Positions 1 through 6,000 of a stretch of 45,181 nucleotides of DNA are shown in pieces. The position numbers are program-made. How positions within the stretch are numbered: the first letter of the stretch is position 1; the number at the start of each line of letters is the position of its first letter. Source of the stretch: Verrucomicrobiota bacterium (lineage in GTDB: Bacteria; Verrucomicrobiota; Verrucomicrobiia; Verrucomicrobiales; DEV007); contig JASFYY010000063.1 of NCBI GenBank assembly GCA_045046875.1, positions 1 to 45,181 of the forward strand. The letters are read 5' to 3'.

Positions 1-3000
1 GGCTTTGCGCTGTCGGGTGCGGTATTTTACGGATGGGGCGGTGTTGGGGAGTCAGGGATTTGTGGATGAGTTTTTTGCGGGACGACGGGAGTGTTTTGGG
101 CAGAGACGAAAAGATGGAGGTAGGAAGATGCGAGGGGCGCAGTGGGGGGAATTGCGAGTGCTGCGGGATTTGGGAGCAGGGGTGCTTCGTGCGGTTGAGA
201 AAAATTAACGATTGAGATAATGGGGGTGAGATATTACCTCGAGTTTTCAACCATCGAACTTAAAGCTGGGTAGACTTTTCAGGAAATTTTTTGCGTTGAG
301 GCCGGAGGTTCTCAGGTCTTTTAAGGCGGGAGATTTTTTTCGTTTGGCCAGGCGGGTGCCTGCGGCATCTTTGATCAGGGGGTGGTGTGCGTATTCGGGC
401 ACGGGCAAGTTGAGCAGGGCTTGTAGCAGACGGTGGAGGTGGGTGGATTCGAAAAGGTCTTGCCCCCTGGTTACAAGGCTGATTTGTTGTAGGGAATCAT
501 CCAGCACAACTGCTAAGTGATAGCTGCAGTGGATATCTTTGCGAGCTAAAATTGCGTCACCAAGTAATTCTGGACGGGCTGTTTGCGGGCCGTGTATTCG
601 ATCGTGCCAAGTGAGTTTTTTGCCGTTAAGTGAGGCGAGGGCTTTTTTGAGATTCAAGCGTAAGGCAAACTCTTCTCCATTGCCTATACGAGTTTCTTGT
701 TCGTCTGCTGACAGTTTGCGGCAGATACCAGGGTAGAGCAGTTCGCTTGAATGGGGAAGGGCGGTGTTCGATTGTTCAATTTCCGTTAGGATGTCTTTAC
801 GGGTACAAAAACAGGGATAGATCCATTGCTGCTGCCGAAGTTTGTCCAAAGCGAGTTGGTATTCTGTAAGGTGATCGGATTGGCGGCGCACTGGAGTTTC
901 CCATTGCAAGCCGAGCCATGCCAAGTCTTGGTAGATGGCAGTTTCGTATTTGGCGCGACAGCGAGTGTAGTCGATGTCTTCTATCCTCAGCAAAAACTTC
1001 CCACAGGCACCTTGGGCTGCTTGTTGTGAAAATAGTGCAGAGTAAGCGTGGCCTTCGTGCAGGTAGCCCGTAGGGCTTGGGGCAAAACGGGTGATGCAGG
1101 CATTGGAGGTCACAGGGGGGGGGATTGAAATTTTTTCAACATCAGATTTTGTGGAGATGGTTATAAGTCTTCAGCGAGTTTTTTGATGTAATCACGTAGT
1201 TCGGGGCCGATGTCATCACGGCGCAGGGCGAATTCGATATTGGTTTTAATGAAATCCAATTTATTGCCAATATCGTAGCGCTTTTCTGTCAGCTTGAGTC
1301 CGTACATGGCATGATCGGCCATCATGCTCACCATGGCGTCGGTGAGTTGCACTTCATTGTTTTTGCCACGGGGAGTATTGGCGAGGTATTCAAAGATCTC
1401 CGGGCGGAAGACATAACGGCTGGCAATAGCAAGTCGGGAAGGGGCTTCGTCAGGGGAGGGTTTTTCGATCAAGGCATCGATTTTTAAAACGGCGTTATTT
1501 TCGCTCAGCCAATCACCGCCGGCGATGCCGTAGCGGTTGACTTTTTCTTCAGGCACTTCTTCCAGGGCGACAACGTTTTGGCCATGTTGACAGAATACTT
1601 CGATCAGCTGCCCTGTGACCGCGGTGCCTTCCCCGGGAACTCCAAGCAGGGTGTCACCGAGCAAGAGGGCAAAAGCTTCGTTGCCGACAAAACTGCGAGC
1701 GTAGGATACCGCGTCACCGAGACCTTTGAGCTCTTGTTGCCAGATGAAGTGAATATTGGCCAGACCTGAGATCTTTTGAATTTTTTCAAGTTCTTCTATT
1801 TTGCCTTTGTCAGACAATTCTTTTTCCAGGTCAAGGTTAGGGTAAAAGTGTTCTTCGATTGCACGCTTGCTTTTGCCGATGATCATGAGGATGTCGGTGA
1901 TACCGGATTCGACCGCCTCTTCGACCACGTGTTGAATGGTCGGGGTGTCGATGATGGGCAACATCTCTTTGGGGAGGGATTTTGCGCTGGGCAAAAAACG
2001 TGTGCCAAAACCAGCGGCTGGGATTACTGCTTTGCGTACTGACGTGGGATTCATATTAAGTTCAGGATTATTGAGTCAAGGGGGCGATTGGACTTGGCTG
2101 TTCCTTGTTTTGCTTGGTAGGCGGGGCAGTGATGATGGGTTTGATCACTTGCAGGCCGAGCGGGATGAGTTTCGAAACCAGTGTTTGGTACATTTTTTCA
2201 TCTTCGTAAGTGCCGACAATGGCGCCTCCCGAGCCAGTGAATTTGGCCGATGCTCCACAGGCTCTTGCGGCTTGAACCATGCGGGTATTGCCTTTGCTCA
2301 TTTGGTAGTTTTTTGTGCGCAGATCAAAATTGGCGTCGATGAGAGAGCCGATTTTATCTCCTTGCCCATTCATTAGTAAATCGCGTGATTGTTCGGCTAG
2401 ATCAGCCCATTGGTTCATAGCGTCAATGATTTCAGGTTCCCCGCGTTCGAAGCGACCGCGGATGTCGTTGTGGAAAATTTCGGTACCTTCGGAGAGCCCG
2501 CTGGAATAGGCGATGTAGAGAGGGGGTAAAAGGTTGGGATCGAGCTCTTCATATTCCCCGTAACCGCGGCTGTTCATCAAATCTTTGTCGAAGTCCATAA
2601 AAACCACGCCTTCATAAGCTTGAATAACTCGATCTTGCAGCCCGGCAGGGATTTGAAGTTCATTGTTCTCTACCGCAAGAATTAGCCCAGCTTGAATCGC
2701 TTTGGGAATGGTGATGTCATAAAAGCTCATCAGCGCGCGCAGGCAGGCCGTGATAATGGCGCTGGAGCCGGCCATACCCACTTGGGAGGGAATATTGCTA
2801 TGGTATTGAATGGTGAAATTACGCTGGGCAAGCGAAAGGTCGTTTTCCAGACAGTAATCATAGAAACGTTTGATGGTGGCTTTGAGCAAGCGCACTCCGC
2901 CATAATAGCCAAAAGAACTGACATCATCTTTAAGTCCCTGGATGCTATTGAATACCGAATGGTCGCGGGCGGCGGGCAGGATCTCCAGTTGAGGGCTTTG

Positions 3001-6000
3001 CCACAGGACTACTTCGGCTTGAAAATTTCTAACAATGAAGGAGATGGTTTTGCCAAAATATCCGTCGGATGGATTGCCGATCAATCCGGCTCGGGCGTAA
3101 GACTGTTGTTTGATTATCATTTTAAATCGAGCAAGCGCTCACTTTAACTGATATTGGCTTGTCTGACAAGTGTTGCAAAAGGGTTGCCTTTGTAGCCGTT
3201 GCGTTTGATCTGGAAGCGCTGGATAGATATGACCAGCGGCATTTTGAAGATTCCGGTTGCCTCTGCAGGGGCAGGGTGTTTCTTATCTGATTCAAAATTA
3301 TGAAAATGAACATCTACTTCCGTCCTTTGCCGAGCTTGCTGTTAGCTGGATTAATGATTTTATTAGGATCAAGTGTTTTGAATCTTAGGGCGGAGGACAA
3401 TTGGGCGCGATTCCGCGGACCAAATGGTACCGGTCATTCAAATGCCAAGAATATTCCGACAAAATGGGATTCGGGATCGATTGTTTGGAAAACCAAATTG
3501 AAAGGGGTTGGGCAATCGTCACCAGTAAATTGGGGTGATAAGTTGTTTCTCACCAGCTCGTCTGATGATGGCAGGGAGCGATATGTGTATTGTGTGAATG
3601 CCAAGGGCGGCAAAATTCTTTGGCAAAAAACGATCCCTTGTGAAAACCCTGAAAAAAACCATAAAATGAATTCATGGGCGACGCCATCTTGTGTCACTGA
3701 TGGCGAACGGGTCATTGCTTTTTTCGGCCCAGCGGGTTTGCACTGTTTTGATTTGGGCGGCAAGGAGATGTGGTCTCAGGATATGGGGGATTTCCCTGGC
3801 AATTGGGGAGTAGCGGCTTCACCGGTGATTTTTGAAAACCTGGTGATTCAGAATACGGATTGCACCGGACCGTCGGTCTTGGTCGCGTTGGATAAAAATA
3901 CTGGCAAACAAGTTTGGAAGGTTAAGCGTGAGGACAAACCTCGTGGCGGGTGGAGCACTCCAATTTTGATCGATTCGGGGAAGAGGGCGGAATTGGTATT
4001 GAATGGTGAGTTCGGCGTTCGAGCTTATGATCCTAAGACGGGAAAAGAACTGTGGTTTTGTAAATCTTTTAATGGTCGAGGGGCTCCTGTTCCCGATTTT
4101 GCCAACGGACTGGTGTATACGGTTAACGGCAAACCGGGCGATACCTACGCGGTTGAGCCTGGTGGATCTGGCGATGTGACTGATAGCAAAATGAAGTGGC
4201 ATGCCAAACGACCTAGGGGGAGAGATCTTCCTTCGCCATCTGTGGTAGGCGATTATCTAGTGGTTGTTAATATGTTGGGCGAAGTCACCTGTTATGACGC
4301 TAAAACAGGTGAGACGGTGTCGTCGCAAAAGCTGATTGAAAAAGGCGGGCATTTTGCTGCAGCACCTCTGGAAGTGAACGGCTTGCTCTATATTCAGAGT
4401 GAAGATGGAGGCGAAACCTTTGTGATCAAACCTGGTAAAAAAATAGAAATCGTGTCCAAGAACTCCTTGGGCGCGGATAAAAAAGAGATTTTCCGAGCCA
4501 CCTTGGCTCCGATTGGAGATCGTATTTATGCCCGGTCGCACACGACCCTGTATAGTATCGGAAACTAGAGAATATCTCCCGCTTGATAGGCGGCAGCTTC
4601 GGGAAACTGTTTAGCGAGTTGCTCAACTGAGGCGGCAAAGTAGTCGATCTGGCTGGCAGCCGCACCGGTAGCGTTGCGGCCGAATTTGAGGATTTGCGCG
4701 ATTTTTTCTTCGGAAAAACCAATACGCTCATCTCCGGCCAGACGCTCAAGCAGGTCGTTTTTTTCGCTTTCTCCACTGCGGTAAGCCTGGGCTGCGGCGA
4801 CGGCGTGTTCCTTGATGACTTCGTGAGCGGTTTCGCGACCCACACCGGCTTTGGTGGCTTCCATCAGGAAGGTGGTGGACAGTAGGAAAGGTAGGTAGTG
4901 ATCGTTTTCCCGTTCGATGACCGCTGGATAGGCTGCCATTTGATCCAGCACGGTGATGAAAGTTTCGAGCAGGCCGTCAGCGGAGAAAAAACTGTCAGGC
5001 AACAAAACACGGCGCACCACAGAGCAGGAGACATCGCCTTCGTTCCACTGGTCGCCGGCGAGGGAGGAAGCCATTGTCAAATAACCTCCTAGCAAGGTGG
5101 TGAAACCATTGATGCGTTCACAGGAGCGGCTGTTCATTTTGTGCGGCATGGCAGAGGAACCGACCTGACCTTTGGCAAAACCTTCGGAGGCGAGTTCGTG
5201 GCCTGCCATCAGGCGTAGGGTCTTGGCAAAACTGGAAGGCCCCGAGGCAATTTCATTGAGGTTGGAGACCACACGCAAGTCGAGGCTGCGAGGATAAACC
5301 TGGCCGGGGTTGACCAACTTAGCAGGCAGTCCTAGATGAGCGACTACCTTGTTTTCCAGTTCGGCGACTTTCTGGGCGTCGCCATCAAACAGGCTGAGCT
5401 GATCGAGTTGTGTTCCGACGGCACCTTTGAGTCCGCGCACAGGATAGCTGTCGAGGATGTGTTGCAGTTGTTGGGTTGCGCCCAATAATTCTTCGCCAAA
5501 TTCAGCCAGACGTCGGCCGAAGGTCGTGACTTGGGCGGCGACGTTGTGGGTGCGGGCGGTGATCACCAAATCCGAGAATTCCTGGCTGCGGGCGGATATC
5601 CGAATGAGAGCTGCGATCGATTTTTTGTGAATTTCCTGCAAACCCCGATAAACCTGGAGTTGCTCGACATTCTCGGTGAGATCCCGGCTGGTCATGCCTT
5701 TGTGAATGTGTTCGTGGCCGGCCAAATCGCAAAATTCTTCGATACGGGATTTCACATCATGTCGGGTGATGCGTTCGCGTTCGTTGATGGAGTCCAGATC
5801 GATTTGGTCGACTACTTTTTTGTAGGCATCGATGGCTTCTGCGGGAATGTCGAGGCCAAGCTCACGCTGGCCTTCCATCACTGCGATCCAGAACTGTCGC
5901 TCCAGACGAATTTTGCCTTCGGTCGACCAGATCGACTTCATGGCGGTGGATGCGTAACGTTCTGCTAGGATATTAGTTATTTGAGACATGGAAATTTAAT

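Follow-up and report, generated by a model that had tools for sequence, protein, structure and literature searches.

A glucuronokinase-family gene and its adjacent GalU variant as a probable salvage route from glucuronate to UDP-glucuronate in Verrucomicrobiota

UDP-glucuronate in bacteria is generally held to come via UDP-glucose dehydrogenase (Ugd). An excerpt of PMC11796359 gives the same scheme. Plants can instead use the kinase GlcAK1 (Arabidopsis At3g01640, EC 2.7.1.43) with the pyrophosphorylase USP, by the same two-step chemistry that we propose here, and in the fish protein GKUP a glucuronokinase is fused to a putative uridyl pyrophosphorylase whose transferase domain was nearly inactive in vitro (passages of PMC3938481). 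The two assayed members of the kinase family, one from a plant and one from a fish, are GlcA-specific according to passages of PMC2823444 and PMC3938481. Bacterial sugar-1-kinase salvage is represented by Solitalea GalK/GPUT for xylose and Bacteroides Fkp for fucose (cited in an excerpt of PMC11267548), which likewise combine a GHMP kinase with a pyrophosphorylase to convert a free sugar to an NDP-sugar, but their kinases belong to different subfamilies (identity of 18% or less in our fold search) and act on different sugars. Glucuronokinase genes in 'a few bacteria' (Verrucomicrobium spinosum, Solibacter usitatus and Dyadobacter fermentans) have been in print since 2010 in the available part of PMC2823444, so the kinase gene itself is not new, and many homologues carry the label 'glucuronokinase' in JGI annotation. 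A first-pass annotation of the locus had stated that the route was known from plants and some animals alone; this holds for measured activity, as our literature searches found no assayed bacterial member of the family, but not for the genes, and the novelty of a bacterial glucuronokinase was overstated. It had also taken the words 'only a pyrophosphorylase' in PMC3938481 to mean that bacteria lack the kinase, whereas in the excerpt that sentence is about relatives of the fish nucleotidyltransferase domain that are not fused.

We analysed a window of 45,181 nt (positions 1 to 45,181 of contig JASFYY010000063.1) from a Verrucomicrobiota genome that is 94.7% complete. Two genuine ORFs lie on its minus strand: a glucuronokinase-family GHMP kinase gene (2068..3120, minus strand; 350 aa, P0001), followed after 13 bp (2055..2067) by a gene for a GalU-type uridylyltransferase variant (1161..2054, minus strand; 297 aa, P0002), the proposed GlcA-1-phosphate uridylyltransferase. 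TIGR01099 had one match in the assembly, the next nucleotidyltransferase being 29% identical, which bears out the earlier statement that the kinase gene immediately precedes the sole galU of the genome. The gap from kinase stop to GalU start fits a single transcript, and the genes may be co-transcribed; a scan of the locus for promoters and terminators returned 4 and 4 sites, equal to shuffled sequence. Further downstream by 47 bp lies gluQRS (247..1113, minus strand), encoding glutamyl-Q tRNA(Asp) synthetase (NF004315, 346.6 bits, cut-off 250), which is probably an unrelated neighbour because it is absent from the annotated neighbours of the other loci. The GC content (49–50% versus 51% for the genome) gave no sign of recent foreign insertion. 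Sugar genes were absent from most neighbourhoods, the window itself included.

The kinase matched PF00288 in a profile search (E 8.9e-11) and scored far below the cut-off of all seven NCBIfam GHMP families (best 44 of 163 bits), by which HddA heptose kinase, mevalonate kinase and galactokinase were rejected as its identity. It shares 136/306 residues (44%) with an annotated Ziziphus glucuronokinase 1 (P0192) and 146/312 (47%) with the kinase domain of an annotated Carassius GKUP (P0148), these references being orthologues distinct from the assayed proteins; both the plant resemblance and the low scores for other GHMP families are thus as first reported. Its predicted structure has the GHMP fold (pLDDT 89.7), and the Foldseek matches of this model were GHMP kinases with TM of 0.6–0.8, the top solved ones being 15–18% identical. 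The protein carries the GNPSD and GLQDR motifs together with H217 and R268. Among the homologues, R10, GNPSD (15–19), E151, D163, R164, H217 and R268 were common to 80/80 bacterial and 41/41 eukaryote-type sequences; the 80 bacterial loci were retrieved with GNPSD and GLQDR as patterns, and R10, E151, H217 and R268 lie outside these patterns. Judged from sequence, the bacterial enzyme would be specific for D-glucuronate.

In a quick, unrooted tree, the plant and fish kinases grouped in a single clade (SH-aLRT 100) that excluded the bacterial kinases, so that the window kinase lies outside the bracket of the two assayed enzymes. This leaves room for a reading in which the pair activates another sugar to its UDP form, be it galacturonate, xylose, 4-O-methyl-glucuronate or another uronate, and xylose salvage by a bacterial GalK with GalU is described in the available text of PMC11267548. 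We consider such a substrate unlikely, since the putative pocket residues are common to the window kinase family and the GlcA-specific enzymes, and a passage of PMC2823444 describes glucuronokinase and plant galacturonokinase as having hardly any sequence in common.

The partner protein scored 324 bits on TIGR01099, just under the curated cut-off of 326.8 that relatives in 39 of 301 phylum genomes passed, and its closest PDB match was Bacillus subtilis YngB (E 3.6e-76). It shares the fold family and catalytic motifs of GalU, GtaB and YngB (EC 2.7.7.9), with G-x-G-T-R-x-L-P, E-K-P, the Mg-binding Asp and Q-L-T-D all intact (motif set as given in an excerpt of PMC6888414). It differs from them immediately after the Mg-binding Asp, where Thr135 occupies the site of YngB Asp134, the residue that touches glucose (passage of PMC7961091), and at Asp114, where most GalU proteins carry His; GLGH is mostly GLGD in the variants. 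The second Asp of the D-D motif was T, S, A or C in 42/42 variant rows and in 58/58 kinase-adjacent genes, whereas it was present in 28/28 top-scoring and 19/20 lower-scoring Acidobacteriota control GalUs (47/48). Loss of this Asp would suit any sugar without a 6-hydroxyl, and E. coli GalU, a normal UDP-glucose pyrophosphorylase, has Val at this position; the loss therefore does not prove a change of substrate, and a pentose phosphate fits equally. In a quick tree that gave long-branch warnings, the variants were not recovered as a single clade.

We then surveyed the kinase and GalU across 301 genomes of Verrucomicrobiota (mostly draft assemblies, 87–100% complete). The kinase occurred in 76 at 46–64% identity, confirming its spread in the phylum, and the reported adjacency of galU on the same strand proved common: galU was directly downstream in 54/76, directly upstream in 3/76 and elsewhere or not found in 19/76. 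TIGR01099 matches of at least 230 bits, a threshold chosen after the score gap was seen, were found in 71 genomes, giving 70 with both genes, 6 with the kinase only, 1 with GalU only and 224 with neither; the corresponding counts were 72, 4, 8 and 217 at 160 bits, and 74, 2, 15 and 210 at 90 bits. The association persisted in most genomes in which the two genes lie apart, and on this joint presence and joint absence we rejected a housekeeping GalU standing beside the kinase by chance. Related genomes are not independent observations. At least 592 matching stretches, from several phyla, were found in genome_contigs.

The GalU variant thus looks like a dedicated partner of the kinase, its presence tracking the kinase and not the need for UDP-glucose, with GlcA-1-phosphate as its putative substrate. 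The kinase could alternatively be a glucuronokinase next to an ordinary UDP-glucose pyrophosphorylase, with GlcA-1-phosphate used elsewhere or by another enzyme such as a PF01704 protein, PF01704 being the family to which the USP of plants belongs. Such a division of labour is in keeping with the near-threshold score of the genome's sole GalU, the 39 relatives over the cut-off, the functional E. coli enzyme without the Asp, and the presence of PF01704 in 90/101 genomes, but it seems to us quite improbable. No such GalU was found in 224 of 225 kinase-negative genomes, and 74 of 78 kinase-negative genomes hold Ugd, from which it appears that UDP-glucose is made in this phylum without such a GalU; with most phylum genomes searched lacking any GalU, the sole GalU of a genome is not necessarily a housekeeping one. 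Furthermore, genome G302 holds both an ordinary and a variant GalU, and the PF01704 protein of the source genome is UAP-like, matching UDP-GlcNAc pyrophosphorylases at E 1e-79 versus USP at E 7e-12. A MIOX search for the plant myo-inositol oxygenation pathway in this genome gave no match, with the positive control also silent.

Kinase–GalU fusions argue in the same direction: eight protein clusters had a near-whole GalU-type domain fused to the kinase, and two further clusters had a partial domain. The fish system likewise ties the kinase to a short nucleotidyltransferase, but its DrUP-type transferase domain had no significant similarity to the window GalU (pairwise E 0.02), and the pair was therefore rejected as a split GKUP. 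Fish and fungal GKUP are single chains, whereas the window has separate ORFs and the GalU–kinase fusions elsewhere are independent; the plant system differs in pairing its kinase with USP in place of a bacterial GalU-type enzyme from an adjacent gene.

Within 3 kb of the kinase, a UDP-glucuronate 4-epimerase-like gene was found in 10/80 loci, which is compatible with galacturonate entry too, and ugd in 4/80, with the order ugd–kinase–epimerase in genome G208. In G068, G074 and G194 the gene immediately upstream of the variant galU encodes UDP-glucuronate decarboxylase (uxs), and in locus L090 uxs adjoins an ordinary GalU. These decarboxylase neighbours, and the decarboxylases of Ugd-negative genomes described below, would also suit a Leloir-like breakdown, in which glucuronate passes via UDP-GlcA to UDP-xylose or UDP-galacturonate and on to catabolism. 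We give this very little credence, as the source genome has a uronate isomerase UxaC over the cut-off, a cheaper catabolic route, and glycosyltransferase and polysaccharide genes adjoin the pair at several loci; its chemistry is identical to that of the salvage that we prefer.

Kinase presence was often linked to loss of UDP-glucose dehydrogenase, which the present analysis adds. A Ugd-type gene was not found in 8/23 kinase-bearing versus 4/78 other genomes. In genus g62, Ugd was missing from 19/21 kinase-bearing and 0/5 kinase-negative genomes in a re-checked count, and no genome lacked both; the five kinase-negative genomes are all small (1.8–2.0 Mb) and may represent one lineage, and TviB-like dehydrogenases in this genus could be a partial source of UDP-glucuronate. 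In family f36, counting any PF03721 match, 19/47 kinase-bearing versus 2/30 kinase-negative genomes had none, while in its genus g156 most genomes hold Ugd whether or not the kinase is present. High-scoring Ugd was found in 41/76 kinase-bearing genomes, although short Ugd proteins (L072, L153) score about 109 bits on PF03721, so that counts of high scores only overstate absence. Fisher p-values for these comparisons exaggerate the significance because they come from related genomes and from three overlapping samples.

Ten of the 10 kinase-positive, Ugd-negative genomes tested hold a UDP-glucuronate decarboxylase (58–68% identity), which requires UDP-glucuronate as its substrate, and 0/10 hold a close 4-epimerase, which was thereby set aside as the consumer in these genomes. 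Together these counts speak more for glucuronate than for galacturonate or xylose as the sugar entering the route, since entry of either of the latter would leave the decarboxylase without substrate.

We therefore read the pair, with fair confidence, as a new version of a known pathway, the salvage of glucuronate to UDP-glucuronate. The kinase would phosphorylate free D-glucuronate at C1 with ATP, and the GalU variant would convert the resulting GlcA-1-phosphate with UTP to UDP-glucuronate, which could supply UDP-glucuronate decarboxylase (to UDP-xylose), UDP-glucuronate 4-epimerase (to UDP-galacturonate) and glycosyltransferases. The salvage prediction of the first-pass annotation thus gained support from the joint occurrence of the genes, their fusions, their neighbours and the association with Ugd loss, with the sugar specificity still deduced. 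The observed basis is the genes, their families, co-occurrence, fusions, residue changes and gene inventories, from which we infer flux through the pair and the origin of the glucuronate. In the source genome, which holds Ugd, the route would run alongside this enzyme, and in several related lineages the pair appears to have taken its place. A bolder proposal, tentative though quite possible, is that the variant is dedicated to the glucuronate-1-phosphate uridylyltransferase reaction (EC 2.7.7.44) and that, on more than one occasion in Verrucomicrobiota, the pair supplanted UDP-glucose dehydrogenase, UDP-glucuronate and UDP-xylose there coming solely from scavenged uronic acid.

If the salvage reading is true, a set of 'galU' annotations would be corrected and EC 2.7.7.44, reportedly listed in 2007 as an orphan activity, would gain a sequence. 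Bacterial enzymes would be on offer for UDP-GlcA synthesis, for which a 2025 review describes Arabidopsis GlcAK with USP (excerpt of PMC11868170). For the bacteria themselves, the pair would constitute a second, widespread, two-gene route to UDP-glucuronate and would account for genomes that have UDP-glucuronate decarboxylase but no Ugd.

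On the reverse strand, a 350-aa GHMP kinase frame (PF00288; 2068–3120) is followed after a gap of 13 bp by a 297-aa GalU-like frame (1161–2054) and then by gluQRS (247–1113). The remainder of the window contained no genes related to the pair. The kinase aligned over 306 aa at 44% with a plant glucuronokinase 1, an annotated reference from Ziziphus and not the Arabidopsis protein, and pairwise alignment with the fish GKUP from Carassius, which is named by annotation and fuses kinase to transferase, gave 47% identity over 312 aa. No curated bacterial family claimed the kinase in a profile search, and its predicted structure (pLDDT 89.7) shared 13–18% identity with the solved GHMP kinases that it matched. 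The GalU-like protein scored 324 bits for TIGR01099 (cut-off 326.8), had Bacillus subtilis YngB as its best structure match, and was the sole one of its type in the assembly (94.7% complete). The first-pass annotation was thus borne out in describing a close homologue of plant glucuronokinase directly beside the genome's only galU.

Among 301 genomes of the phylum, the kinase was found in 76 and a GalU of at least 230 bits for TIGR01099, a threshold set at a gap in the scores, in 71. Seventy of these 71 also carried the kinase, leaving 6 genomes with the kinase only, 1 with GalU only and 224 with neither. The two genes were adjacent in 57 of the 76 kinase-bearing genomes, in agreement with the earlier statement that the pairing is common in Verrucomicrobiota. 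A wider scan for the kinase matched at least 592 stretches; in the best 80 of these loci, which came from Verrucomicrobiota, Kiritimatiellota, Lentisphaerae, Planctomycetota, Bacteroidota, Spirochaetota and others, galU followed the kinase in 58. GalU was common in Acidobacteriota (98 of 121 genomes, a tally including two unpublished ones) and the kinase was present in 8 of 121, with galU directly upstream of four of the five close kinases. GalU–kinase fusions formed eight protein clusters with a near-whole GalU-type domain and two more with a partial one; six look closely related, so the fusions reflect few events. The pair of kinase and modified GalU is real and widespread.

In a quick kinase tree, plant and fish members grouped together with the bacterial ones outside, so that specificity is transferred on the strength of sequence identity and conserved residues, not of phylogenetic bracketing. 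The residue comparison used 41 eukaryote-type proteins chosen by length and fusion type, of which only 5 carry names. Three Acidobacteriota genomes (G360, G399 and G307; loci L085, L086 and L087) had a more distant kinase (36–40%) that branched near the eukaryote clade in this tree; at E 1e-50, none of the three gave a GalU match.

In YngB, Asp133 binds Mg and Asp134 touches glucose, according to the available part of PMC7961091. The window GalU kept the Mg-binding Asp and had Thr at the Asp134 position. This position was T, S, A or C in all 42 variant rows (one from genome G199, the other 41 from genomes or loci that carry the kinase) and in all 58 kinase-adjacent galU genes, two sets that overlap slightly. 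Among Acidobacteriota GalUs, all 28 top-scoring sequences had D there, as did 19 of 20 lower-scoring ones, and one genome (G302) encoded both a variant GalU and one with the Asp. If an Asp of this type binds the glucose 6-hydroxyl, as we assume, the sequence change would admit a C6 carboxylate. Since E. coli GalU has Val at the same position, the loss of Asp is a marker of the group and no proof of a changed substrate.

Among the first 101 genomes, a match of the UDP-glucose dehydrogenase (Ugd) type at E 1e-50 was absent from 8 of 23 kinase-bearing genomes, compared with 4 of 78 others. Across the 26 genomes of genus g62, Ugd was present in all five without the kinase and missing from 19 of the 21 with it, and no genome lacked both. 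Weaker Ugd-type matches checked in this genus were TviB-like in 11 of 12 cases and partial in one, and a short-Ugd model gave no match in 10 of 10. In family f36 (77 genomes), PF03721 was wholly unmatched in 19 of 47 kinase-bearing versus 2 of 30 other genomes. UDP-glucuronate decarboxylase was kept in all of 10 kinase-positive, Ugd-negative genomes (five each from g62 and f36), with 58–68% identity to the window genome's copy, which matched human UXS1 at E 8e-126; none of the 10 had a close 4-epimerase. Where Ugd is missing, a retained decarboxylase must draw its UDP-glucuronate from elsewhere, for which the pair is the plain candidate, and because the Ugd-negative genomes are related drafts, the pattern represents perhaps a handful of events. 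The decarboxylase gene uxs lay directly upstream of the variant galU in three genomes of genus g82. Within the best 80 of the at least 592 loci, ugd was no more than 3 kb away in 4 and a UDP-glucuronate 4-epimerase-like gene in 10, the latter label being based on matches to PDB 5U4Q and 6ZL6, which we take to have this activity.

Neither the kinase family nor its presence in bacteria is new. The available part of PMC2823444 places kinase genes in 'a few bacteria'; Verrucomicrobium spinosum, Solibacter usitatus and Dyadobacter fermentans are included in the tree of that paper. Many homologues carry the JGI name glucuronokinase. The view that the route was known only in plants and some animals accordingly fails for the genes and stands for assays: in the accessible literature, with most subscription journals outside its scope, we found no account in which a bacterial glucuronokinase, or a uridylyltransferase of GalU type acting on GlcA-1-phosphate, had been assayed. 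In zebrafish, the kinase activity is GlcA-specific and the fused transferase almost inactive (PMC3938481, available part); the remark there on bacteria, previously taken to say that they encode only the pyrophosphorylase, concerns the fish transferase group. EC 2.7.7.44, the glucuronate-1-phosphate uridylyltransferase activity, was tabulated as an orphan in 2007 (PMC1940265, available part). We found no published account of the dedicated GalU-type partner or of the apparent Ugd replacement.

Below 230 bits, the added GalU matches were mostly fusions of about 640 aa, in which a galactokinase-like GHMP domain precedes a distant C-terminal GalU-like domain, a second kinase–transferase family (L055:3072–4994 in G071, L056:1720–3648 in G197 and L057:1642–3570 in G218) with similar frames of 640–730 aa in ∼14 more genomes of the survey. 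Their GalU-like domain has D-H where D-D is expected, and the L057 fusion lies directly behind uxs; they are candidate salvage enzymes for another sugar. Proteins of 740 aa in three genomes (L074:1682–3904 in G059, also G029 and G248) joined a distant GalU-like C-terminal domain to an N-terminal part without a Pfam match. A 901-aa open frame (L248:2273–4975 in G083) ended in the kinase, its first 570 residues lacking a Pfam match, and is either a fusion or a chance open frame. In two genomes (L033:3688–5001 and L062:362–3208), the gene immediately upstream of the kinase was a eukaryote-type hexokinase (PF00349, PF03727). Most of the Verrucomicrobiota searched had Ugd and no GalU, and the high-scoring UGPase type of PF01704 occurred in only 16 of 101 genomes; where neither was present, the enzyme for UDP-glucose was not evident. 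Elsewhere in the window, three successive frames at 6021–11 223 (reverse strand) encode an FHA-domain coiled-coil protein with 1044 residues, an Hsp70-family protein that is short at 497 residues, and a protein of 187 residues without a known family. At 25 613–26 551 (forward strand), a gene preceded by those for an adenylate cyclase regulator and a hybrid histidine kinase encodes a fusion of a response-regulator receiver with a Schlafen/AlbA_2 domain.

We consider it probable that the kinase and the modified GalU make UDP-glucuronate out of free glucuronate, as a variant of the known pathway with a GalU-type partner; in several related lineages the pair appears to have taken the place of Ugd. 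A MIOX search of the window genome gave no match, its control also being silent; the glucuronate may come from polysaccharide breakdown or from fructuronate via reversible UxaC. Since this genome keeps Ugd (contig C19), the decarboxylase (C153), a 4-epimerase-like gene (C2) and uronate isomerase (C156), the pair here would be an extra salvage route, in competition with glucuronate breakdown.
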